40,413 bases of DNA from NCBI GenBank assembly GCA_043785085.1, contig JAYVXN010000303.1, forward strand, positions 1 to 40,413. The letters are read 5' to 3'. Position 1 is the first letter of the stretch. Each line of letters starts with the position of its first letter. This document shows positions 1-38,845 of the stretch, one piece after another. Position numbers and translations under genes: made by a program. Origin of the DNA: Bdellovibrionales bacterium. GTDB taxonomy: Bacteria > Bdellovibrionota > Bdellovibrionia > Bdellovibrionales > JAMPXM01. The notes under the pieces were generated by a model, which was given only the letters and a program-made list of their open reading frames with translations, made no database searches and was not told where the DNA came from.

Positions 1-560
1 GCAACTGCGGTCGGCACACACTCAAGCACCACCGCAAAACAGCCGCAGTTTTCAAGTGCGCGGGCTTGGGCCAAAAGCCATTCGCCAGCGTTTTCGCCAG
101 TCGCCTGAAGTTTAAAGCCTCCGAAAGCATGGACCGATTGCGGTGTGAGACCGAGATGACCCATCACCGGAACGCCAGACTCAACGATGTGTTGCAAAGT
201 TTCTTCGCTGCCTTTGACTCCTTCAATTTTCACAGCCTGAGCACCAGCAGCCATAATTTGTCGGACGGCAGCGAGTGTCGCATCGAGGCTACCGCGATGA
301 GCGAGAAACGGCATATCACCAACGATGAATTTGTGAGGCGCTCCTTTGCGAACCGCATTCACGTGCAGAGCCATCAATTCAGGAGTTGCCGCAACCGTAT
401 CCGGGTGCCCGTGCATGGTCATGGCTAGGCTATCGCCGACCAGAATGCAATCGATGTCTGAAGCGCCAACGATTTTCGCCGACGTATAGTCATAGCAGGT
501 GACCATCGAAATTCTCTGCCCTTGCTCTTTATTTTTTTGAAAATCGAGTACGGATTTCAT
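1..560 (-). CDS. panB: 3-methyl-2-oxobutanoate hydroxymethyltransferase (ketopantoate hydroxymethyltransferase); the start is in the window and the 3' end runs off the left edge
   Basis: My own minus-strand translation from the ATG at 560-558 gives MKSVLDFQKNKEQGQRISMVTCYDYTSAKIVGASDIDCILVGDSLAMTMHGHPDT...FIVGDMPF...AVKIEG...GHLGLTPQS. These are the typical PanB blocks (TxYDY, LVGDSLxM, DMPF, VKxEG). The ORF is absent from the track because it is open at the window edge. ORF 66..428(+) is its antisense shadow. Confidence 0.9.
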   Translation of the reverse strand, partial: MKSVLDFQKNKEQGQRISMVTCYDYTSAKIVGASDIDCILVGDSLAMTMHGHPDTVAATPELMALHVNAVRKGAPHKFIVGDMPFLAHRGSLDATLAAVRQIMAAGAQAVKIEGVKGSEETLQHIVESGVPVMGHLGLTPQSVHAFGGFKLQATGENAGEWLLAQARALENCGCFAVVLECVPTAV

Positions 561-2193: not shown

Positions 2194-2385
2194 TCCTTTA
2201 CTTAGGACAATAACTTTCGGCTAAAACCGCTATCGCTCGCTCCGGAAGCGCGAATCTGGCCACGTGCTCGACAGTTTCAAGATCAACGTGCCGTTAAGGT
2301 ACGTCTCGCTTGAAACTGCCTGCGGGCGCGGCCACCTTCGCGCTGGCGGAGCGTTTTAGCTCGAAAGTTATTGTCGCTTTAAGGC
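2194..2385. mobile_element. Copy 1 of a roughly 190 bp palindromic MITE-like repeat element
   Basis: Long imperfect hairpin. GACAATAACTTTCG (2206-2219) pairs with CGAAAGTTATTGTC (2362-2375). GCTAAAAC pairs with GTTTTAGC, and CAGTTTCAAG (2272-2281) pairs with CTTGAAACTG (2309-2318). The element is homologous over its whole length to 32375-32562. It is flanked by direct TAATC at 2189-2193 and 2386-2390. The exact ends are uncertain by 1-2 nt. Confidence 0.7.
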
Positions 2386-13218: not shown

Positions 13219-15126
13219 CTATATTTCGTCTTCAAATTCAATGGATAGAGTCAGCAAGTTTTGAAACAGCTGACCAATCGGGGACTGCAAACTAATCAGT
13301 CGCGCGGTGCGGGTTTTCACGGTCGGCACTTGATAATCGGTATAGAGCTCAACAGCCTTTTGAATATCAGCGGGACTCATGCCTCGCCGTTTTGCCTTGA
13401 GAATTGCGTCAATAAGAAATTCGGCACCGTTTCCGGTGATTCGACCGTTTTTATTTTCCATTTGGGCTAGGGCGTTAAGGTCTTTGAGATGTGTCATGTT
13501 AGGCTTTTCACCAAATGCTCTCCGCAAGATTGTGCAATAAGAAGCAACAAAGTTGCGGATTTTGCCGCGAAGATTGGGCGTCAGTCGGGTGTCGTAGCGT
13601 TTCGCAAACGACGACGTCATTAAATCCAAAATATCTTCGTCTGCCATCAGATCTTCACAATGTGCGAAATCATCAACTTTGATGAGCATATTCGGCAGCT
13701 CTCGTAAGACCGCACGCATTTTAAAAACAGCGGGACGATTGACGCCGTCGGGTAGTCGGCGCGTTTTACCTTTGGTCTTGGTCTTTTCTAGAACCAAAAA
13801 AGTTTGATAGAGAGATTCACTCTGGAGGGGAGATCTTTGCAAGAGTGCGGTGATTTGCTTACTCGTGAAGCCGATCTGTTTGAGAAAAAACTCGCGGCAG
13901 CTCCGTTCGAAAATCGCGTCGAACTTATTTAAGACCGGATGGTTTTGGAACCGATTCAAAGGCCGTCTTTTTCGCGATTTTAAAAATGCGACCAGCTGAA
14001 TAAATACTCGTACGGTTTGTCTTGCCTTGATCCGCTGTTCATTGAGATTGGTCGAAAAACGTTGCACGTCATCGTAACGATATTGATCATGGCGTAGACC
14101 AAATTGGCGAATACTTCCATAGTCAATAATGCCGGCATCCGCCAACACGTTGTCGCCATCCCAGTCCATCCAAGCAAAGATATAGTTTCGCTCAAGTTGG
14201 GCGGCAAAACGGGCAAAACCAGCGCAAACTTCATTGAGCATTAAATCATAGCGATCAGAGCTTGCCGGATTGAAATGCCAGCGGCCATTGGCCACCTGGC
14301 GCTCAATCAAATAATCGGTGGCTCGTTTCAAAGACCGATAGCGCCCTTGTTTTAAATGCAAAAAGAGGTGAGCTGGACGAATAAGATTCAAAGCGGCACG
14401 TACGCCAATTCCCACGCCTTTACCGAGATCAATGATCGTTAGAACTCGCTCGGTTTGTACGCCTTGAAGGTGAAAAATCTCAGACATCAAAGCAGACCCG
14501 TAAAGTTCATCGACGTCGGCCATGCCACAGCCGTAACCAAAATCAGTGGCCCCGGTTTGCAAAGGTCGATTGGCCTCAACGGCACCTGGCGCGAGTGAGG
14601 TGACACCTGTGCCACGGCTGCTGACGTCCCAGGTGCGACCAGCATGTCGAATGCTGCCATTCCAAATGCTTCGGCCATCGCCAGAGGTCTTGCCTTGTTT
14701 GTTGGAATGCTGCAGCTGCAAGTATCGAGTAGCCATAAAGTTATTTGGTTTAATCAATTCACTGGGTACGGGTAGGCCATTTTGTTGGTCAAACTCATTG
14801 ATGATTTGGATGGCAAAGGTCTCAAGAATCTTTTCCTGAAGCGATTGAGACAATTCATGAGCATGATGGGCTGGGATCAGGCCCATTTCTTTGGCGAGCT
14901 GAAAGTTAAAATAAATGACCTGGCCACGACCAATATTGCGAACTGGGTACGAAATAAATCCGTCTGGAACTGCGTCCTGCCAAGGATGGGTGCCATCGAG
15001 CTCATTGAATTTGCTATAAATATCCGTCTGCGAAGAAGTTGAGGTTTTAACCTCGCGCCGAGGATTTGGATTTTTATGCACTTCGCGCTTTGACATTCGT
15101 CCGTTGTTCTCCCAAGTGGTGCCCAT
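13219..15126 (-). CDS. divergent SelO/YdiU (UPF0061)-like protein, putative AMPylating pseudokinase-fold enzyme
   Basis: 635 aa ORF. The blocks GDGRS, WDVSSRGTGVT, SALMSEIFHLQGVQTERVL, IRPAHLF and FAWMDWDGDNVLADAGIIDYGS are collinear with SelO blocks (GDGRA, LKGAGxTP, SEA..LGIPTTR, LRFGHF, HGVMNTDN...LDYG). The assignment is by motif recognition only. Confidence 0.6.
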   Translation of the reverse strand: MGTTWENNGRMSKREVHKNPNPRREVKTSTSSQTDIYSKFNELDGTHPWQDAVPDGFISYPVRNIGRGQVIYFNFQLAKEMGLIPAHHAHELSQSLQEKILETFAIQIINEFDQQNGLPVPSELIKPNNFMATRYLQLQHSNKQGKTSGDGRSIWNGSIRHAGRTWDVSSRGTGVTSLAPGAVEANRPLQTGATDFGYGCGMADVDELYGSALMSEIFHLQGVQTERVLTIIDLGKGVGIGVRAALNLIRPAHLFLHLKQGRYRSLKRATDYLIERQVANGRWHFNPASSDRYDLMLNEVCAGFARFAAQLERNYIFAWMDWDGDNVLADAGIIDYGSIRQFGLRHDQYRYDDVQRFSTNLNEQRIKARQTVRVFIQLVAFLKSRKRRPLNRFQNHPVLNKFDAIFERSCREFFLKQIGFTSKQITALLQRSPLQSESLYQTFLVLEKTKTKGKTRRLPDGVNRPAVFKMRAVLRELPNMLIKVDDFAHCEDLMADEDILDLMTSSFAKRYDTRLTPNLRGKIRNFVASYCTILRRAFGEKPNMTHLKDLNALAQMENKNGRITGNGAEFLIDAILKAKRRGMSPADIQKAVELYTDYQVPTVKTRTARLISLQSPIGQLFQNLLTLSIEFEDEI

Positions 15127-15217: not shown

Positions 15218-16369
15218 TTATATAAACTCAATGGCAGTCAGGCCGCCGCCAGGAGTGTTCACGTTGGTCATTTGCCCTTGGTAGAGGCGCGCGGCCAGCA
15301 ATTGGATTTTATTTTGGTAGGCGTAGAAGCGCAGATCGACTTTAAATTCCAAATCGCCCAAGACCACTTTTGAGGCCGGCACATATTCTTGAGCTAGGTA
15401 ATTGCCCTGCAAAATCGTTTTAAAGGCTGATTTGGTGACAGAGGCACCTTTGTAGGTCGCTTTTCCACCAAACGATTGGGTGGGTTTGAAAAATAGGTTT
15501 TTCCGTCTTTGCCAGAATTCCTCTGGATGAGGGTGTTGACTCACGGAGTGCGCCGGAATCAAAGCCGCTTCGAGTGCCGATCGATCATTATGACTCAGAT
15601 TGAAACGTGCTAAAGCATTCGACTGCGAGAGCTCTAGGATGCGATTTTTATCGGCCAGGAGCAGATATTCACGGGGATTCGGAGTCAGGCAAAGTTTCTG
15701 AGAAAAATAAGCCTGACGTATGTTCTGGACTTCTGGCTTTTGCAGGAAAAAATCTGTGTGCCGGTTGTAAATTAAATTAATTTTGGAGAGATTGGCTTCT
15801 GTCGGATCAAGGATTTCGGCGTGGTAGCCTCGAGTTTTAAAAAGCTCCTGATAAAGCAGAAATTCAATAAAAAGACGCTGCGTGGACGGCTTTTCATCGA
15901 CGATGGCGATACTCGTTAGTGGCCCCTGAGCGCCTGAAAGTCGAAATTCATTTTCAAAAGTCGTCATGATTTCGTTGCGAAAACCGGTACTGAAGGGATG
16001 GCTCACTCCTTGCGCTTCATAGAGTAAATCCGTGAGCAGAGAGCTCGAGGCATTGGTGTTGATTTCAATGAGTTTTAGTTGGCCTTGGTCATTGATATGA
16101 AAATCATAACTCATCAGAGCAGAAAAGTTCTGTGCACCTGAGCGCCACTCTGGAAACTGCGCGAAGGTCGCATCTTGGTACTCGGGCTTCATGCGCAAAT
16201 TAAAAAATGCCGCGACAATGTTTTGCGCTTGCGTTTGAATGGTACGCGGAAGTCTTAATACATGCGGTGAAACCAGATTGGCGGACAGTCGTTCTCGGAG
16301 ATTTGGCGAGTTCGCAGTCTCTGGATAGTGCTGCCTTAAAACTTCCAAATATCGATCGTAAAAAGACAT
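15218..16369 (-). CDS. ATP-grasp-fold ligase-like protein, specificity unknown
   Basis: 383 aa ORF. SYDFHINDQGQLKLIEINTNAS, FFKPTQSFGGKATYKG, YLAQEYVP and the C-terminal VDLRFYAY...ARLYQGQMTNVNTPGGG resemble ATP-grasp / glutathionylspermidine-synthase-like ligases. Confidence 0.5.
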   Translation of the reverse strand: MSFYDRYLEVLRQHYPETANSPNLRERLSANLVSPHVLRLPRTIQTQAQNIVAAFFNLRMKPEYQDATFAQFPEWRSGAQNFSALMSYDFHINDQGQLKLIEINTNASSSLLTDLLYEAQGVSHPFSTGFRNEIMTTFENEFRLSGAQGPLTSIAIVDEKPSTQRLFIEFLLYQELFKTRGYHAEILDPTEANLSKINLIYNRHTDFFLQKPEVQNIRQAYFSQKLCLTPNPREYLLLADKNRILELSQSNALARFNLSHNDRSALEAALIPAHSVSQHPHPEEFWQRRKNLFFKPTQSFGGKATYKGASVTKSAFKTILQGNYLAQEYVPASKVVLGDLEFKVDLRFYAYQNKIQLLAARLYQGQMTNVNTPGGGLTAIEFI

Positions 16370-17065: not shown

Positions 17066-17836
17066 GTGAAGATCATTACCTGGAATGTGAACGGAATTCG
17101 GGCGGTCTATAAAAAAGGCTTTATTGAATTCGTCGAGCGCGAGGAACCGGATCTGCTTTGTTTGCAAGAGACTAAGGCGCATCCGGAACAATGTGAGCCG
17201 GCCTTGCTCCATCCGGCTGGGATGAAAGGATTTTGGTCCTCTGCTGTGCGGCGCGGATACTCAGGTGTGGCAACTTTTGTGAAATCCGATCCGAAAAATG
17301 TCGCCTACGGCTGGGGCATCACACTATATGAAGCCGAAGGCCGCATCGTCATTACGGAGCATCAGGACTTTAAACTCTATAATATTTATTTTCCAAATGG
17401 CGGATCTGGACAAGAACGTCATGATTTTAAACAAAAGTTTCTCGCGGATCTCAATGCGCATTTAAAGCCACTTGTTGAAAGTGGCGAAAAAATCATCGTC
17501 GTCGGCGACTACAATGTGGCGTACTTGCAAATCGATGTTCATGACCCCGTTCGCCTCAGTAAGGAAAGTGGCTTTTTACCGGAAGAACGAAGCTGGTTCG
17601 AGTCATTCTTGGAGCTGGGCTTTATTGATACTTTCCGACATTTTTATCCCAACGAGCCCGAGCAATACACATGGTGGGATTACCGAACTCGCGCACGCAT
17701 CGCCAATCGCGGCTGGAGAATTGATCATATTTGTGTCACCGCAAATTTGCTGCCGCAATTAGTGCGAGCGCAAATTCTTGCCGGCCAAGAAGGATCGGAT
17801 CATTGTCCGGTTCTTTTGGAAATTAAAGGGGAGTGA
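17066..17836 (+). CDS. xthA: exodeoxyribonuclease III
   Basis: The GTG at 17066 has GGAGG 9 nt upstream and gives (M)KIITWNVNGIRA...LCLQETKA...WRIDHI...GSDHCPV, the canonical ExoIII/AP endonuclease pattern. The track ORF start at 17015 is probably too far upstream. Confidence 0.9.
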   Translation: MKIITWNVNGIRAVYKKGFIEFVEREEPDLLCLQETKAHPEQCEPALLHPAGMKGFWSSAVRRGYSGVATFVKSDPKNVAYGWGITLYEAEGRIVITEHQDFKLYNIYFPNGGSGQERHDFKQKFLADLNAHLKPLVESGEKIIVVGDYNVAYLQIDVHDPVRLSKESGFLPEERSWFESFLELGFIDTFRHFYPNEPEQYTWWDYRTRARIANRGWRIDHICVTANLLPQLVRAQILAGQEGSDHCPVLLEIKGE

Positions 17837-18363
17837 AAGTGATTTTTTTCCTGTTCATTGTTTACCCCATTCTAGAAATTTATACGCTCTATTACGTGGG
17901 TTCAATTATCGGTATGTGGCCGCTGTTTTTGTTTCTGGTTTTTTCGGCCTTCATTGGTTTTAACATCGTCAAATCCCACAGCCGACAATTATTGGGACAG
18001 CTGCAAACTCAGGTGGCCAGTGGCAAAGAACCGACCAAGGCCATGCTTCAGGGCCTCTTGGTTTTTTTGGGTGGTGCTTTGTTGGTTGTCCCGGGGATCA
18101 TCAGCGATTTTCTAGGGCTTATGTGTATTCTGCCCGGAACGCGCCATTTAATGGCCCTGCTGTTGCAAAAATATTTGGCTAAAAAAATTCGCCAAGGGTC
18201 CTTTCGCTTTCAGCAGATGGGGCCCTTTCAGTTTGCCGGCGGGGGTTCGTTCAAATGGCCAGGTGGTCCTGAGGGTGGTCCCACGGGAGAACGGGATGTC
18301 TCGCCAAAGGTGATTGATGTCGTGCCGTTATCGTCGACCACAGAATCAAAGCCTGAAAACTAG
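17833..18363 (+). CDS. fxsA: FxsA-family inner membrane protein
   Basis: 176 aa ORF with hydrophobic N-terminal helices and the block VVPGIISDFLGLMCILPGTRH that is characteristic of FxsA. The GTG start overlaps the xthA stop. Confidence 0.75.
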   Translation: MKVIFFLFIVYPILEIYTLYYVGSIIGMWPLFLFLVFSAFIGFNIVKSHSRQLLGQLQTQVASGKEPTKAMLQGLLVFLGGALLVVPGIISDFLGLMCILPGTRHLMALLLQKYLAKKIRQGSFRFQQMGPFQFAGGGSFKWPGGPEGGPTGERDVSPKVIDVVPLSSTTESKPEN

Positions 18364-18374
18364 AAGTCAGTCCC

Positions 18375-18442
18375 GCGCCGTACGAAGCGCCGTGCGAAGC
18401 GCCGTGCGAAGCGCCGTGCGAAGCGCCGTGCGAAGCGCCGTA
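18375..18442. repeat. 12 bp tandem repeat, about 5.7 copies (GCGCCGTGCGAA)
   Basis: Read directly: GCGCCGTACGAA once, GCGCCGTGCGAA four times, then a partial GCGCCGTA. The array is intergenic, starting 12 nt after the fxsA stop. Confidence 0.9.
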
Positions 18443-31032: not shown

Positions 31033-32046
31033 GTGAGTACCTTGAAAATTCCTAATAATGAAATCCGTCAAACCCGCCGCGCCTCCTATATTTCGTTTGC
31101 CGTTGGGATTTGTTTGTTGGCGCTTAAGTTTTGGGCTTTTCGGGTCACGGGTTCGCAAGCGGTTTTTTCCGACGCTATGGAAAGCATTATCAATGTGGTG
31201 GCGGCTGGACTCGCGATTATCGTGATCATGATCGCCGCCAAACCGGCGGACCAAGATCATCCCTATGGACATGGAAAAATCGAATTTTTTTCGGCGGCAT
31301 TTGAAGGCGGAATGATCGCGTTTGCCTCGGTTTTTATTTTTGTTGAGGCCATTCATTCCTTTATCAAGGGCGAGAGTTTACAAGAGGTCAGCTTCGGGAT
31401 CGTCGTGGTATTTGCAGCCGGTCTGGTCAATTTACTTCTCGGACTGTTTTTGATTTTCATCGGCAAGCGCTCGCAATCAATTGCATTGGTCGCCAGTGGC
31501 CAACATGTGCTCTCCGATTTTTGGACCAGCGCCGGTGTGACGCTTGGTCTACTGCTGGTGCATTTCACTGGGTTGATGTGGATTGACTCGGTCGTTGCCT
31601 TATTAGTCGGCTCACTGCTGGCATACACCGGAATCAAACTCGCGCGACGTTCGGTCGGCGGACTTCTCGATGAAGAAGATAGTGAAGTGGTTCGTGAACT
31701 GATGATGATCATTGAGCTCAGTCGCCCCGCAGGGATTATTCAGGTGCACCATCTCCGTGTGATCCGCTCAGGCCGATATCATCATATCGACGCACACGCC
31801 GTTATTCCGGAGTTTTGGGATGTTGCCGAAGCGCATGCGCACACAGAGAACTTTGAAGCGCAAATTATGTCAAAATATCCCTATCAAGGTGAGCTGCATT
31901 TGCACGTTGATCCATGCCGACGGGCTTATTGCCGAGAGTGCGATTTTGAAAACTGCCCGATTCGAGCTGAGGCTTTTGTCAGCAGACGAACACTGTCACT
32001 GAAAGAGCTCACTGATCCCGAAGAGCCAATTCAGTTTTTGACCTGA
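31033..32046 (+). CDS. cation diffusion facilitator family transporter
   Basis: 337 aa ORF with a GTG start. FSDAMESIINVV...DQDHPYGHGKIEFFSA...HVLSDFWTS matches the CDF TM2/TM5 metal-site pattern, with a C-terminal cytoplasmic domain. Confidence 0.85.
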   Translation: MSTLKIPNNEIRQTRRASYISFAVGICLLALKFWAFRVTGSQAVFSDAMESIINVVAAGLAIIVIMIAAKPADQDHPYGHGKIEFFSAAFEGGMIAFASVFIFVEAIHSFIKGESLQEVSFGIVVVFAAGLVNLLLGLFLIFIGKRSQSIALVASGQHVLSDFWTSAGVTLGLLLVHFTGLMWIDSVVALLVGSLLAYTGIKLARRSVGGLLDEEDSEVVRELMMIIELSRPAGIIQVHHLRVIRSGRYHHIDAHAVIPEFWDVAEAHAHTENFEAQIMSKYPYQGELHLHVDPCRRAYCRECDFENCPIRAEAFVSRRTLSLKELTDPEEPIQFLT

Positions 32047-32078
32047 ACGTCTGACCTGAACGTCTGACCTGAACGACG
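32040..32078. repeat. 13 bp tandem repeat, 3 copies (GACCTGAACGTCT; the last copy ends ACG instead of TCT), overlapping the CDF gene stop codon
   Basis: Read directly: GACCTGAACGTCT twice, then GACCTGAACGACG. The first unit contains the final codons TTG ACC TGA of the CDF gene. Confidence 0.8.
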
Positions 32079-32120: not shown

Positions 32121-32657
32121 CTAATTCGTCGTTCCACCGCGAAACATAAAAAATGCTGCGGCCATCAAACAAAGCCCGGCCCATAAAAAATCCAAACGCA
32201 GCGATTGGCGCATATAAAACACCGCAAATCCGGCAAACACGATCATCGTGATCATTTCTTGGATGACCTTGAGCTGCGGCAATGAAATCGATTGAATACC
32301 GGTGCGATTGGCCGGTACTTGCAAGCAATATTCAAAGAAAGCAATTCCCCAGCTCACCAGGATGGCTACGTAAACCCCAATGTTGCATAAACTTTCGGTC
32401 GGAACCGCTGTCGCTTGCTCCAGAAGCCCGAATCTGACGACTTGCTCAGAAAATCTCGACTCAACGTACGGTGTACGTACGCCTCGTCCAGATTTTCCTG
32501 CGCGAGCCGCCACCTTCGGGCTTCTGAAGCATTCCGACTCGAAAGTTTATGCAACATTGGGGTAAAGTGGCTTGCCTCTGAGATTCTTCAAATGCCCATA
32601 CCAGGCAAAGGTCATAAAGACATTTGAAAGCAGTAAGAGGCCAATCTTTTTAAACAT
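32121..32657 (-). pseudogene. DUF486/DMT-superfamily small membrane protein gene interrupted by a 188 bp element
   Basis: ATG at 32657 with GGAGG 8 nt upstream. The 5' part encodes MFKKIGLLLLSNVFMTFAWYGHLKNLRGKPLY and then stops inside the insert (TAA at 32549-32547). The 3' part encodes VAILVSWGIAFFEYCLQVPANRTG...FMFRGGTTN, ending at 32121. Removing 192 nt gives a continuous 114 aa DUF486-like ORF. Confidence 0.8.
32375..32562. mobile_element. Copy 2 of the palindromic MITE-like repeat element
   Basis: Perfect 23 bp terminal inverted repeats: CCCCAATGTTGCATAAACTTTCG at 32375-32397 and its reverse complement at 32540-32562. Direct TAAA lies on both sides (32371-32374 and 32563-32566). The interior is nearly fully self-complementary and homologous to 2194-2385. 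Confidence 0.8.
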
Positions 32658-32658
32658 T

Positions 32659-34320
32659 TCAATAACCTCCGGCAGCGCCCTCTCCACGAGCATCAAAAGC
32701 ACCTTCGAGAAGATGCGAATCAGAAAGATAAACGCCGTAAACTTTGCCGGTCGTAGAGGCTTCTTCGATCACATGGCCTTTACTTTTGAGACCATCTAGA
32801 GTTTCTGGTGCAAAGCGGGTCGCATCGACATAGAGAATGTCGGGCAAAAACTGATGATGAATCCGGGGTGCTTGAATGGCCTGATCGATATCAAGTCCCT
32901 GTTGAAGACTGCGGTAGAGCACTTGAAGCACGGCTGAGATAATCCGCGGCCCACCGGGTGCACCCAAAGATAAAACCGTGCGGCCGTCTTTTTCAACAAT
33001 GGTCGGACTCATGGAACTGATCGGCCGTTTTCCTGGAGCGACACTATTGCTCTGGCCTTGAATCAGTCCAAATTGATTGGCTTCTCCGGGGCGAGTGGTG
33101 AAATCATCCATTTCATTATTCATGACGATGCCAAATTTATCACTCACAATGCCTGAACCGTAGGACCCATTGAGGGTCACTGTCATCGCAACGGTGTTGC
33201 CTTTGTCATCCATAACTGAAAAATGCGTTGTTTGGAGAGACTCAACGGTGACATTTTTCATGGATTCAACTGCGACACTTTTGCCAGATGAGATTTTCGA
33301 GGCAAGAGTTTTTAAATAAGAATCACTGGTGAGTTGTTTGATCGGATTCGGGCCAAAATCAGGATCACCGAGGAGGCTTCGCCCCCGAAAGGCCAATTTT
33401 TCGATTTCAGCGAGAGTGTGGAGCTCATCAACTGAGAGGTATTTTTTAGAGGGCAGACTCACATCCTGCGCGAGCTTCAACGCAGACATGATCACGACTC
33501 CACCGCTGCTGGGTGGAGGCATCAAATAAATTTTATACCCGTTGAACTCAGTGGTCAGCGGCTCAAGCCAGCGAACTTTGTAGGATTTCAGATCATCGAG
33601 GGACAGAACACCGCCGGCCGCGTGCACGGTTTCGACCATATCTTGTGCCGCAAGCCCTTGATAAAATGGCACGATCCCGCGATTGCTCATCTCCTTGAGA
33701 AGTTTTGCTAGTTCGGGCTGTTTCATTATGTCGCCCGGCTTATAGGAGTGTTCGCGGTCGATGAGAAAATACTTTTTTCCCGCTTCATTAAAACGTGCCG
33801 CGGTTTTCTGAGTGTTTTGTGCCCACTCGCCGCTCACTTGATGGCCTTTGCTGGCAAGTTCAATGGGTTTTAAAAATAACTCACTCCAATGCAGTTTGCC
33901 GTATTTCTGATGAAGCGCCCACAATCCAGCTGGAATCCCGGGCACACCAATCGCAAACGGGCCATCGGTTGAGGCGGTTTTTGCCTTCTCCAGGTAAAAA
34001 TCTGCACTCGTCGCTTTAGGAGCCGTTTCTCGAAAGTCGAGAGCTTGAACAGTCCCATTGATCTTAATGAGAGCAAAACCTCCGCCGCCGAGTGCGCCAT
34101 AGTAGGGATGGGTCACGGCAAGACTGAGTGCTACACCCACCGCCACATCAACGACGTTGCCACCTCGTTTAGAAATACCGGTGCCCACTGAAATCGCTTC
34201 GGGCGAGGGGCCGGCAATCATTAGTTTTTGCCCTTGTGCCGGGATCGCAACGGCTTGAGTTAACCCCATCAGGCCTGCGGTTAGCATCAGCAAACATAGG
34301 TAAACAGGATGGTTTTTCAC
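32659..34320 (-). CDS. ggt: gamma-glutamyltransferase
   Basis: Catalytic Thr region LQTTHFSVMDDKGNTVAMTVTLNGSYGSG, plus MDDF and GAPGGPRII. The preferred start is the GTG at 34320 with AAGGGGG upstream, giving signal peptide (M)KNHPVYLCLLMLTAGLMGLTQAVA. The track ORF extends to 34419. Confidence 0.9.
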   Translation of the reverse strand: MKNHPVYLCLLMLTAGLMGLTQAVAIPAQGQKLMIAGPSPEAISVGTGISKRGGNVVDVAVGVALSLAVTHPYYGALGGGGFALIKINGTVQALDFRETAPKATSADFYLEKAKTASTDGPFAIGVPGIPAGLWALHQKYGKLHWSELFLKPIELASKGHQVSGEWAQNTQKTAARFNEAGKKYFLIDREHSYKPGDIMKQPELAKLLKEMSNRGIVPFYQGLAAQDMVETVHAAGGVLSLDDLKSYKVRWLEPLTTEFNGYKIYLMPPPSSGGVVIMSALKLAQDVSLPSKKYLSVDELHTLAEIEKLAFRGRSLLGDPDFGPNPIKQLTSDSYLKTLASKISSGKSVAVESMKNVTVESLQTTHFSVMDDKGNTVAMTVTLNGSYGSGIVSDKFGIVMNNEMDDFTTRPGEANQFGLIQGQSNSVAPGKRPISSMSPTIVEKDGRTVLSLGAPGGPRIISAVLQVLYRSLQQGLDIDQAIQAPRIHHQFLPDILYVDATRFAPETLDGLKSKGHVIEEASTTGKVYGVYLSDSHLLEGAFDARGEGAAGGY

Positions 34321-34474: not shown

Positions 34475-35188
34475 ATGCCAAATACTGCCACTGCTCTAAA
34501 TCTTGCGAAATCCCATATCGCTTTAACGCGAAATTTACCCTGTCCGAATATGTATGTTTCTATGATGGAAGGCGAATTCAGGGACTGGGCTTTTAATGAG
34601 GAGCGTGCGCCGCTTTTTCGTGGTAAATGGCGTGATGAAGTTTTTAAGAAAACTTCGGATCAGCCACTTGATCTTGAAATCGGCACAGGCAACGGCTTTT
34701 ACTTTGCACATCATGCTCAGACTTATCCACAACGAAGTCTCGTGGGAATTGAGCTGAAGTATAAACCATTGGTGCAATCGATTCGGCGCGCTCTTCGGTT
34801 CGGGTGTGAAAACGCTCGCATCATGCGTTACGATGCTTTTGATATTGAACATTTGTTTACCAAAAATGAACTCAATAATGTGTACGTGCACTTTCCTGAT
34901 CCTTGGGAAAAAAAGCGGCATTGGAAAAATCGCCTGATTTCAGAACGGTTTTTAGAAGTCGCATTTTCATTGCAGCGTGAAGGTTCGTTTTTGGAGTTCA
35001 AAACTGATTCCATGGACTATTTTGATTGGGCAATGCCGATCATTGAAAAAAGTCAGTATAGAATTGAGCGGCATACCAGAGATTTGCATCAGTCTGAATG
35101 GAAAAGCGAAAATTTCATCACGCAATTCGAGAGCCTCTTTCTCAGACAGAAGCTCCCGATCTATTACACTCTTTTACGCCGTCAGTGA
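34475..35188 (+). CDS. trmB: tRNA (guanine-N7)-methyltransferase
   Basis: LDLEIGTGNGFYF, LVGIELK and VYVHFPDPWEKKRHWKNRL are TrmB signatures. The start is uncertain: ATG 34475 gives the longest ORF, and ATG 34550 is an alternative. Confidence 0.85.
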   Translation: MPNTATALNLAKSHIALTRNLPCPNMYVSMMEGEFRDWAFNEERAPLFRGKWRDEVFKKTSDQPLDLEIGTGNGFYFAHHAQTYPQRSLVGIELKYKPLVQSIRRALRFGCENARIMRYDAFDIEHLFTKNELNNVYVHFPDPWEKKRHWKNRLISERFLEVAFSLQREGSFLEFKTDSMDYFDWAMPIIEKSQYRIERHTRDLHQSEWKSENFITQFESLFLRQKLPIYYTLLRRQ

Positions 35189-36624
35189 CAGGCCTGGACA
35201 AAACGTGCCGGCCCCACCACGACGGGCGCTGGATTCTGCCAGCTTTGTAACCAGGGAGACCAACTGAACTCAGTTGCAAGCGCATCAGCTGGGAGCAAGG
35301 TTTCAGCAACTGTAAATTCTTTTCCGCCAAATTCGGGAGAGAGTTCGGCACGCAAAACAGGAATTGATTTTGCCAGGCGAAATTGCAAACCAATCAAGTT
35401 TTCTGTGAAAGTAACGCCAGAGTCAGGACTGGGCTGGCTGACCGTCGAGTTGCAGTCGATATTCAATGATGTCCGTGCGGTAACAGTGACCTGCCCTTGC
35501 GCTGGAACTTCAAACAAAATCAATTCGTTGGTCATTCTTTCGCTTTCAGCACCTTTTATGTCGAAATTCAGAGGCGATTTAATCTCATGTTCAAAGTGCC
35601 CAAAATGATCATCGCTACCAAGATCAACGGCCCGGACTACCACTTGGTTTTGTGGATCTTTCGGAATGGCCACCATGATACGAAACGGATGGGGATTCGC
35701 AATGTTATAACTAAATATCGCCTGATCTTTAATGGGAAGGCTCTGAAAGCCTTTAAATTCGGTCACAGTAGAAATTTTAAGAGGCGCGAGATGGTACGCA
35801 ATCGGAAAGGTCGCACTGACCAAGCGGATGGCGGAGTTGGTGGCATCTGCGATAAAACGACAATTCTGGTGCGGATTGGTTTCTCGTGGATTGACGCTTG
35901 ACTCGATTGGGGCGGGCGCGATCGGGCCCTCAAGGATTTCTTGCAAATTAATTTTGCCGAGGTCATTGATCGGGCGTTCTGAACGGAAATAGTCACACTT
36001 CAAATAAAGCTGGCCACTACCAGTCTGTTGTGAGTGAGCCAAGGCATCTGCAAGTGAATCTTGAGTCAGTGACTGAATGGATTTGAGTTGATGATCTGCT
36101 AAGCTCAGGCCTTGTTCTTTTGCAAGGTGAGTCAGCTGGACACCCTCTATTTTTGCGCTGTTTTGATCTTTAGTGTTCGTGACTGTATCAAATTCAAACT
36201 TACAAATGACATTATCGGTTTTTTCAAAAAAGAACTCTCGTGGTACCAGACGGGTGAGCTGCAGCTCCGTTTGATTGTGTAACGTCAGAGTCTGCTGGTA
36301 GGTTTGCTCTGCCGACATACAATCGCTTTTAATGGTGATATCGAAAAACTTCTCATCTGTCTGATAGGGCTTCAGTTCTGGGAAAAAAAGTGTCGAATCA
36401 ATCGTCAGAGGGTTTTTATTTATTTCTAAAAAACCGATTATGCCATCGCTTGTCCGGACCGATGGAAATCCGGGATGAAATTCTCTTTTTACTACGCCCG
36501 GCGCAGACTGAGTGACAGGCGTGCCGCTAGATCCGCCGCTGTCGTTGCTGTCCGAAGAACAAGATGTGAGTCCGAAAAGCGGAAATAAAACAGAAATTAA
36601 AATGAGTAAAACACGTAATTGCAT
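35182..36624 (-). CDS. hypothetical lipoprotein, 480 aa, no recognised domain
   Basis: The ATG at 36624 has GGGGAG upstream. The signal peptide has a lipobox (MQLRVLLILISVLFPLFGLTSCSS). The track ORF start at 36813 overlaps the upstream ferredoxin gene and is rejected. Confidence 0.7.
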   Translation of the reverse strand: MQLRVLLILISVLFPLFGLTSCSSDSNDSGGSSGTPVTQSAPGVVKREFHPGFPSVRTSDGIIGFLEINKNPLTIDSTLFFPELKPYQTDEKFFDITIKSDCMSAEQTYQQTLTLHNQTELQLTRLVPREFFFEKTDNVICKFEFDTVTNTKDQNSAKIEGVQLTHLAKEQGLSLADHQLKSIQSLTQDSLADALAHSQQTGSGQLYLKCDYFRSERPINDLGKINLQEILEGPIAPAPIESSVNPRETNPHQNCRFIADATNSAIRLVSATFPIAYHLAPLKISTVTEFKGFQSLPIKDQAIFSYNIANPHPFRIMVAIPKDPQNQVVVRAVDLGSDDHFGHFEHEIKSPLNFDIKGAESERMTNELILFEVPAQGQVTVTARTSLNIDCNSTVSQPSPDSGVTFTENLIGLQFRLAKSIPVLRAELSPEFGGKEFTVAETLLPADALATEFSWSPWLQSWQNPAPVVVGPARFVQACH

Positions 36625-36673
36625 ACAATCTCCCCTGTTGCCGGGGGATATTGCAAATGTAAGACCAAAAAAA

Positions 36674-36961
36674 TTACCAATACGTCGCGTGGACCCTAAT
36701 GTCGCCAAAAACCAAGGTTTGGCAGGAGATCCGCTCATCAGGAGGGATGTTCCGGTCTTCCCTGAGATCTTGTTCGAGGTCAGTTTCAACAGAGAGGTTT
36801 TCGGCCCCTTCAATAATCTTTAGGCGGCATTTGACACAGACGCCGTCGCCGCCACACGAACTTGCAACAGGAATTTCGTTTTGTCGCAAAACCTGCATTA
36901 AGTTAGCGCCGACTGGCACCTCAAGGGGCGCCCGATCTTTTAAAAAACGGATGACTGGCAT
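36674..36961 (-). CDS. 2Fe-2S ferredoxin-like protein
   Basis: 95 aa ORF with the Cys pattern SSCGGDGVCVKC...ISCQT, the C-x5-C-x2-C...C arrangement typical of plant-type/fer2 domains. Confidence 0.75.
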   Translation of the reverse strand: MPVIRFLKDRAPLEVPVGANLMQVLRQNEIPVASSCGGDGVCVKCRLKIIEGAENLSVETDLEQDLREDRNIPPDERISCQTLVFGDIRVHATYW

Positions 36962-37807: not shown

Positions 37808-38743
37808 ATGGCAGAGCAAAAAGTCGAAAAAGTTATTATTATAGGATCAGGTCCCGCAGGCTTAACCGCCGCTGTCTATACGGCGCGCGCTTTACTGAAT
37901 CCATTGATGATTGAAGGCGAAGAACCTGGCGGTCAGTTAATGATCACCACAGACGTTGAAAATTATCCGGGATTTTCAGAAGGCGTGACAGGTCCTGAAC
38001 TCATGGATGATATGCGCAAACAAGCCGCTCGATTTGGAACGCGTTTTATCACTCGAAATGTCACAAAAGTTGAATTTTCTGGCCATCCCTTTAAAGTTTG
38101 GGTGGGCAATGATTTGCATTTAGCTAGCTCGGTCATAATTTCAACTGGTGCGAGTGCCAAGTATTTGGGTCTTCCTTCAGAAAAAGCTTTTTACAATAAA
38201 GGCGTCTCGGCCTGTGCAACCTGTGATGGCGCATTCTTTAAAAATGTTGAAGTCGCTGTCGCTGGTGGCGGTGATACCGCCATGGAAGAGGCGACATTTT
38301 TGACCCGTTTTGCTTCAAAAGTTTACATCATCCATCGCCGCGATACCTTTCGTGCCTCGAAGTTCATGGTCGATAAGGCGCTTAAAAATCCGAAGATTGA
38401 ACCCCTTTGGGACACCGTCGTTGAGGAAATCGTCGGAGATAAATTTGTCACAGGTTTGAAGCTGAAAAATCTAAAAACCGGTCAGGTCACCGAAAAGCCA
38501 ATCGGCGGCCTTTTCGTTGCCATTGGCCACAAACCCAATACAGAATTATTTCGTGGGATTTTAGAGCTCGATGAGACCGGCTACATCATCACCCGGTCGC
38601 ACTCGAGTTATACCAGCATCGCCGGAGTATTTGCGGCGGGTGATGTGCAAGATCACGTGTATCGGCAAGCGATCACCGCCGCTGGAACCGGCTGCATGGC
38701 TGCCATCGATGCGGAACGATGGCTTGAGGATCAGGGCGAGTAG
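37808..38743 (+). CDS. trxB: thioredoxin-disulfide reductase
   Basis: The ATG at 37808 follows AAGAAGGA. IIIGSGPAGLTAAVY, redox-active CATCDG, GGGDTAMEEA and AAGDVQD are present. 311 aa. Confidence 0.92.
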   Translation: MAEQKVEKVIIIGSGPAGLTAAVYTARALLNPLMIEGEEPGGQLMITTDVENYPGFSEGVTGPELMDDMRKQAARFGTRFITRNVTKVEFSGHPFKVWVGNDLHLASSVIISTGASAKYLGLPSEKAFYNKGVSACATCDGAFFKNVEVAVAGGGDTAMEEATFLTRFASKVYIIHRRDTFRASKFMVDKALKNPKIEPLWDTVVEEIVGDKFVTGLKLKNLKTGQVTEKPIGGLFVAIGHKPNTELFRGILELDETGYIITRSHSSYTSIAGVFAAGDVQDHVYRQAITAAGTGCMAAIDAERWLEDQGE

Positions 38744-38827
38744 CTGAGCGAATAACTGAGCGAATAGCTGAGCGAATAGCTGAGCGAATAACTGAGCGAA
38801 TAACTGAGCGAATAACAGAGCGAATAA
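38744..38827. repeat. 12 bp tandem repeat, 7 copies (CTGAGCGAATAA/G)
   Basis: Read directly. The units begin at 38744, 38756, 38768, 38780, 38792, 38804 and 38816, and the last unit is CAGAGCGAATAA. The array starts on the base after the trxB stop. The last 12 nt of trxB (CAGGGCGAGTAG) match the unit at 9 of 12 positions. Confidence 0.9.
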
Positions 38828-38845
38828 CAATTCGGGAGACAGGGA

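Follow-up and report, generated by a model that had tools for sequence, protein, structure and literature searches.

The window, that is, the whole stretch of DNA analysed here, is an entire NCBI contig of 40,413 nt, and its host is an uncultured Bdellovibrionales-like bacterium. The best named relatives of the 5'-nucleotidase that it encodes belong to Bdellovibrionaceae and to Bdellovibrionales MAGs, none of them closer than 77%. Two copies of a palindromic element are present in the window, together with the following features.

2195-2384, plus strand: copy 1 of the element, 190 nt, CCTT...AAGG, with its well-paired part at 2205-2376
32121-32374, minus strand: 3' part of the DMT_6 gene (VAILVSWGIAFFEY...), PF04342 positions 30-104, emerging from the left end of copy 2
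32371-32374, no strand: left copy of the target-site duplication, TAAA (or GTAAA, 32370-32374)
32375-32562, plus strand: copy 2 of the element, 188 nt, CCCCAATG...CATTGGGG, inside the DMT_6 gene
32405-32415, plus strand: 11-nt bulge present on the left arm only, CCGCTGTCGCT (copy 1 counterpart at 2227-2237)
32433-32434, plus strand: TC side of a conserved internal loop (2x2), facing CC at 32513-32514
32457, plus strand: C private to copy 2 (G in L122, a further copy described below), giving a C-C mismatch in copy 2
32563-32566, no strand: right copy of the target-site duplication, TAAA (or GTAAA, 32562-32566)
32563-32657, minus strand: 5' part of the DMT_6 (DUF486) gene (ORF 32547-32702), PF04342 positions 2-22

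The other genes of the window are housekeeping genes, and no transposase, parent IS with matching ends, RAYT gene or Y1 gene was found in these 40 kb. ORFs without a Pfam match lie at 13219-15126 (635 aa), 15218-16369 (383 aa), 35182-36813 (543 aa) and 1418-2191 (257 aa). Other repeats were noted along the contig. A 24-nt inverted repeat, 83% complementary and with its arms 193 nt apart, lies at 36206-36446 inside the 543-aa ORF and is probably a product of chance. Tandem arrays of a 12-nt unit occur at 38736-38828 (GCGAATAACTGA, 7.8 copies, 93% matches), in an intergenic region bordered by a thioredoxin-reductase-like gene on one side and a gene for a response regulator on the other, and with stop codons in the unit, and at 18375-18441 (GCGCCGTGCGAA, 5.6 copies, 98% matches), just downstream of an FxsA-family ORF (17833-18363). 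Finally, a perfect 13-nt tandem repeat (TGACCTGAACGTC, 2.8 copies, 32039-32075) runs across the stop of a cation-efflux gene, within the gap that separates this gene from the convergent DMT_6 gene.

Copy 2 begins with CCCCAATGTTGCATAAACTTTCG and finishes with CGAAAGTTTATGCAACATTGGGG, and the interval 32375-32562 delimited in the preliminary description proved to be the element exactly. The repeat finder reported a perfect terminal inverted repeat of 24 nt for this copy (32374-32397 / 32540-32563), together with a more internal and imperfect one of 38 nt, and for copy 1 an inverted repeat of 26 nt at 81% (2206-2231 / 2350-2375). The ends of the element, CCCCAATGTTGCATAAAC and CCTTTACTTAGG, are A/T-rich and carry no GTAG/CGTC tetranucleotide; as bounding sequences for a parent element, CCCCAATGTTGCATAAACTTTCG with its complement, or CCTTTACTTAGGACAAT, are candidates. 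Whether folded as RNA or as DNA, each copy forms a single long hairpin. The RNA folds reach -111.6 kcal/mol for copy 2 (z -14.7) and -99.6 kcal/mol for copy 1 (z -11.6), and the DNA folds -66.7 kcal/mol (z -12.7) and -59.5 kcal/mol (z -9.1), respectively. The coding content of the element is limited to ORFs of 61-63 aa, which are artefacts of the palindrome. Against Rfam there was no match at the gathering threshold, the best sub-threshold one being a plant miRNA hairpin with 25 of 100 bits, and the intrinsic terminator test found no T tract after either copy. Other kinds of hairpin were considered and rejected: an attC site for want of RYYYAAC/GTTRRRY ends, a Correia-like core with an IHF site because its spacing is wrong, and a retron msd because no RT gene lies nearby.

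At copy 2 the insertion can be read directly from the interrupted gene. The 5' part of the DMT_6 gene enters the right end of the element and halts at an element-borne TAA after ...KPLY-PNVA. When positions 32375-32566 (the element and one TAAA) were removed in silico, a protein of 114 residues was obtained, which matches the Pfam family in one stretch over positions 2-104 of 104 (E 6e-45). Because this removal restores the reading frame, the insertion was precise and produced a target duplication of 4 bp (TAAA) or 5 bp (GTAAA), at an A/T-rich site. The DMT_6 gene is thus split by copy 2 and presumably inactive in this genome. An in-frame insertion of the RPE kind was rejected: the element and its duplication together make 192 nt and stay in frame, but the in-frame TAA follows PNVA.

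Copy 1 occupies the entire gap between two convergent stop codons (TAA at 2189-2191 and CTA at 2385-2387). The orthologous gap in five relatives measures from -9 to +71 nt, 4 nt in one of them, and is free of the element. Since the 5'-nucleotidase ends at the same residue in 5/5 relatives as in the window, base 2385 belongs to the flank and copy 1 ends with AAGG at 2384, an end that aligns exactly with the GGGG of copy 2. No clean duplication of 4-5 bp was found at copy 1, where CT alone matches if both stop codons are ancestral. A 5-bp duplication TAATC (2189-2193 and 2386-2390) was discarded, as with it the 5'-nucleotidase would lose its conserved stop and grow by 23 residues. The arrangement of the two convergent genes varies among the relatives: the 5'-nucleotidase overlaps its convergent neighbour by 9 nt in L126 and in L128 (11384-11392 in each) and abuts it in L127 (11395-11396), and L124 alone has a conventional hairpin terminator, in a gap of 71 nt. 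The position of the 257-aa ORF, convergent with the 5'-nucleotidase, is conserved in the five relatives, and its C-terminus varies freely.

Further copies were found by searching with the spurious ORFs of 61-63 aa, which gene callers occasionally annotate. Two more members of the copy-2 subfamily were recovered in this way, L122 as DNA and P0121 as protein only, so that the element is known from at least four loci in at least two assemblies. L122 lies on a 784-nt ENA contig, reached via protein P0122, between divergent genes; copy 1, as described above, stands between convergent genes and copy 2 inside a gene. A covariance model (R1) built from the three DNA copies (copy 1, copy 2 and L122) scored copy 2 at 196 bits and copy 1 at 178 bits, and on these three copies it discriminated the strands, with 178-202 bits for the forward strand against 59-90 for the reverse. 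P0121 is an NCBI protein from an 8,021-nt contig, whose flanks (GF|TPMLHK and TLG|FMKS), read at the protein level, would imply a TTYA target duplication. No matching flanks were found at L122, a k141 contig that runs over the 188-nt repeat and may join the flanks of two different copies. The sequence CTAAT directly follows the right ends of copy 1 (2385-2390) and of the L122 copy (385-389, minus strand), in the contexts CTAATCAAG and CTAATTCAAC; at two otherwise unrelated loci, chance, a preference for certain targets or a join made in assembly could each account for it. Neither nhmmer nor model R1 detected more copies in the window or in 103 kb from the five relatives. According to blastn, the 120 genome-contig loci matching the unspecific pattern CGAATCTGN{60,85}GCCACCTTCG were chance loci without a copy, and in metagenome contigs the pattern AACTTTCGN{28,34}CGAATCTGN{97,109}CGAAAGTT had a single match, L121, by chance inside a gene. 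Viral contigs, examined by pattern scans, and plasmids and phages, examined by blastn, yielded no copy.

We then compared the two arms across copies. The alignment of copy 1 with copy 2 needs no gaps over its 172 columns and shows about 69% identity (2205-2376 versus 32383-32554; 109/158 in the core), and the consensus structure of the copies obtained with RNAalifold contains 69 pairs, on which 96.6% of the cells are paired. Between copy 1 and the copy-2 lineage, 22 of these 69 pairs have changed on both sides while remaining Watson-Crick. When the 3' partners were slid by 1-3 columns the number of double changes fell to 0-2, none of 500 column shuffles reached the observed count, and a random-placement null, in which the 51 differing paired columns were scattered over the 138 paired columns, averaged 3.1, with 11 as the highest value in 20,000 trials. 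As the observed value lies far above these nulls, the independent decay of two hairpin copies cannot yield the pattern. The covariation is therefore statistically solid for the single comparison of copy 1 with the copy-2 lineage, in a test that is per site and not phylogenetic and that concerns one split in a sample of three DNA copies and one protein-level copy, that is, two independent lineages. The compensatory stem changes claimed in the preliminary description are thus borne out well beyond chance, and the segments it quoted were all correct in letters and coordinates: GCTAAAAC/GTTTTAGC at 2220-2227/2353-2360 in copy 1 where copy 2 has GTCGGAA/TTCCGAC at 32398-32404/32532-32538, and, in a second stem block, CAGTTTCAAG/CTTGAAACTG versus AGAAAATCT/AGATTTTC. 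Differing columns make up 8/34 of the unpaired (24%) and 51/138 of the paired ones (37%), a difference that is not significant (p = 0.16).

The 11-nt insert reported on the left arm alone is real and present in both copies (2227-2237; 32405-32415); with the sequence CCGCT(A/G)(T/A)CGCT, it forms a mini-hairpin of 2 bp with a variable tetraloop (TATC, TGTC or TGAC). The mismatched loop described as CGAATCTG opposite CCACCTTCG is smaller than proposed, since only TC/CC are unpaired and the remainder pairs (CGAA/TTCG and TG/CA). The left bulge, a 1-nt T bulge on the right arm and this 2x2 loop are common to both subfamilies at the same columns, as are the 4x4 loops beside the apical stem and the apical loops, and the earlier statement that bulges and loops are conserved in position stands. 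These shared asymmetric features indicate that the common ancestor was already an imperfect hairpin whose complementarity was kept afterwards, and they rule out an independent palindromic duplication in each copy. Some stem blocks vary without any loss of complementarity (columns 2-7, 17-20 and 66-78, each with its partner), and others are invariant on both arms (GCTCC.GAAGC.CGAA and its partner; AACTTTCG/CGAAAGTT). Between the subfamilies, the 10-15 nt at the very ends differ, while the internal blocks are conserved. Such differing tips would be unusual if one transposase bound them, and depart from the usual MITE pattern.

Within the copy-2 subfamily the picture is one of erosion. L122 and copy 2 show 3 differences in 188 nt: one falls in the tetraloop of the bulge (T32411 in copy 2, A in L122), one is the C at 32457 listed above, and the last is A32527, private to copy 2 (G in L122 and P0121), which gives a C-A mismatch. 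L122 is paired at both positions, 32457 and 32527, where copy 2 is mismatched, and P0121 carries a further change in an unpaired A. To judge from these few substitutions, the changes in the young subfamily look like ordinary decay, and copy 2 looks slightly eroded from a more perfect master. It had been argued that the decay of a MITE would erode pairing, so that covariation would mark a functional hairpin instead. The pairing has indeed been maintained, and this part of the argument holds; the object itself is a MITE-like mobile element, as indicated by the target duplication and gene disruption at copy 2, the empty copy 1 sites and the near-identical copies, and the opposition between the two is lost. 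Nor does covariation take the place of erosion, since single copies do erode, with two private pair-breaking substitutions in copy 2 and seven unpaired cells on the consensus structure in copy 1.

Covariation between subfamilies, together with erosion within single copies, points to a constraint on the propagating (master) lineage. We consider it probable, though well short of certain, that the loci are copies of a non-autonomous, MITE-like palindromic element comprising two subfamilies, whose arms are kept complementary for mobilisation. The constraint would then be the ability to be mobilised, and not a service rendered to the host at each locus, a view with which the three different insertion contexts of copy 1, copy 2 and L122 agree. 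We propose that a transposase encoded elsewhere in the genome would act in trans on the folded element, and that pairing would be needed either as an intrastrand DNA hairpin or cruciform, or because one arm templates the other. The invariant blocks, the 11-nt bulge and the TC/CC loop would be the likely sites of protein contact. Protein sites on duplex DNA would account for the invariant blocks. As the variable spacers are complementary across the arms, intrastrand pairing or arm copying is called for, and such sites would be insufficient.

A serious rival to a selected DNA hairpin, albeit one that we regard as unlikely, is that the arms are kept complementary without selection, by mismatch repair or gene conversion in an extruded hairpin or by the regeneration of one arm from the other. 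Such templated correction would either undo a stem mutation or transfer it to the opposite arm. Each of the 22 compensations replaces a Watson-Crick pair by another one and 9 of the 22 need transversions on both sides, which is roughly a raw mutation spectrum, and some of the changes form runs (columns 17-20 and 73-77). The features that have persisted are large loops, which escape mismatch repair. However, templated correction should also erase small asymmetries, yet the bulge of one T and the 2x2 loop of TC and CC have been kept in both subfamilies, and uncorrected mismatches remain, two in copy 2 and seven in copy 1.

The same substitutions bear on whether the fold matters as RNA. Selection on the fold of a transcript, whether of a structured non-coding RNA or of a cis element working as RNA (a terminator or an mRNA stabiliser, for instance), could account for covarying stems with conserved loops and for the very stable RNA folds; moreover, copy 1 stands where the relative L124 has its ordinary terminator, and bcr1 and like repeats are transcribed (PMC3184786). 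On the other hand, one-sided wobble changes affect 2 pairs only, versus 22 double changes, and mismatches show no consistent strand: judged by G-T versus A-C mismatches, the plus strand is favoured in copy 1 but the minus strand in copy 2 and in L122, and it is the minus strand that gives the better fold for these last two, whereas for copy 1 both strands fold equally well. This strictly Watson-Crick and strand-symmetrical compensation suggests a requirement at the DNA level rather than an RNA fold, which, judged by substitution types in small numbers, would be the less likely object of constraint. The copies also lack a common transcript context, copy 2 breaking a coding gene and L122 lying between divergent genes; no promoter or T-tract terminator signal was seen at the copies, no Rfam family matched, and single copies decay. 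The compensations show no strand-consistent G-U bias and give no positive sign of a constraint on RNA, and the structured RNA offered as a candidate in the preliminary description appears improbable.

That description had also suggested elements of the REP/RAYT or IS200/IS605 type. REP/RAYT and IS200/IS605 elements have neither target duplications nor terminal inverted repeats; here the inverted repeats are present, as is a target duplication at copy 2. The minus-strand flank of copy 2 is TTTAC, which resembles the TTAC target of IS608. A single-stranded DNA route, in which a Y1 (HUH) transposase or a RAYT reads the hairpin, is nevertheless very improbable, for although the hairpin is long and compensatory changes are common in REPINs (PMC3116915), the target is duplicated at copy 2, the inverted repeats reach the very tips, no paired short GC-rich REP units with GTAG/CGTC heads stand at the ends, copy 2 was inserted within a gene and the 40-kb window holds no Y1 gene.

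With this element, a poorly studied lineage of predatory bacteria gains a well-defined mobile repeat of the hairpin type. It also shows that covariation can be separated from plain MITE decay, one family displaying both covariation between subfamilies and erosion of single copies. Were the partner enzyme found, the fixed bulges and loops and the stems that are free to vary would map what this enzyme reads. In practical terms, the element disrupts the DMT_6 gene and will fragment short-read assemblies of such genomes. A bolder reading, which we hold to be a long shot, is that mobility obligatorily passes through a long folded single strand (DNA or RNA), whose conserved asymmetric motifs, namely the 11-nt side bulge, the TC/CC loop and the apical loops, would be read by a dedicated, unlinked enzyme. 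Such a system would be neither of the HUH/Y1 type nor based on a TIR-binding DDE enzyme, yet would make target duplications, and the hypervariable paired blocks would be subfamily-specific identity modules.

How does the element compare with known systems? It is small and non-coding (188-190 nt, MITEs being below about 400 bp and without a transposase gene), has terminal inverted repeats (24 nt and perfect in copy 2, 26 nt at 81% in copy 1), and is dispersed over four loci with filled and empty sites, that of copy 1 being empty in five relatives. The flanking duplication is clear at copy 2 (TAAA/GTAAA), inferred at P0121 (TTYA) and absent at copy 1 and L122. Duplications of 4-5 bp and CC ends presumably fit IS1380-like elements. 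The Correia/NEMIS, ERIC, Chunjie and Nezha MITEs resemble it in size, terminal inverted repeats, lack of a transposase and target duplication (as seen at copy 2), and Chunjie folds at about -98 to -130 kcal/mol, compared with -100 to -123 for the element (PMC3184786). The target duplications differ, with 4-5 bp here, TA for Correia and 9 bp for Chunjie. Unlike classical MITEs, the element has termini that vary and internal blocks that are conserved, the reverse of the usual situation, and it has no known parent IS.

Like the element, a REPIN as a whole is one hairpin, with blocks that are highly conserved on either arm and a spacer that is variable yet paired. Compensatory changes between the two sides of this hairpin are reported to be common, and selection has been argued to act on the replicating element (PMC3116915). 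However, REPINs are strictly extragenic, consist of two short GC-rich REPs, are tied to RAYTs and make no target duplication, whereas our element duplicates its target, has inverted repeats reaching the tips and disrupted a gene: copy 2 duplicated its target inside DMT_6, and two inverted GC-rich REP units with a GTAG/CGTC head are absent. The ends of IS200/IS605 elements and PATEs are similar in that they are imperfect hairpins which carry conserved extrahelical bases and are recognised in the form of single-stranded DNA. They differ in having two unlike, small subterminal hairpins, with no terminal inverted repeats and no duplication; here no distinct subterminal hairpins are found, the whole element being a single hairpin.

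Also among the closest descriptions is that of bcr1 from the Bacillus cereus group (Okstad 2004; Klevan 2007, summarised in PMC3184786), a dispersed, mobile repeat of about 155-190 bp with 5-bp direct repeats. Its fold is kept by compensatory base-pair changes, while single copies repeatedly lose stability (PMC3184786). Like our element, bcr1 is non-coding and mobile, with short end repeats, a compensated fold and erosion of single copies. It belongs to another phylum, and no sequence relation is expected; it is depicted as a cruciform of two stem-loops, whereas the element folds into a single long hairpin that has a small bulge at its side; and transcription has been shown for bcr1. Altogether, the covariation of the arms is real, but of a sort already known from other bacterial hairpin repeats, and the element belongs to a kind already described, that of MITE-like mobile hairpin repeats, and not to a new RNA or to the REP or IS200 type.
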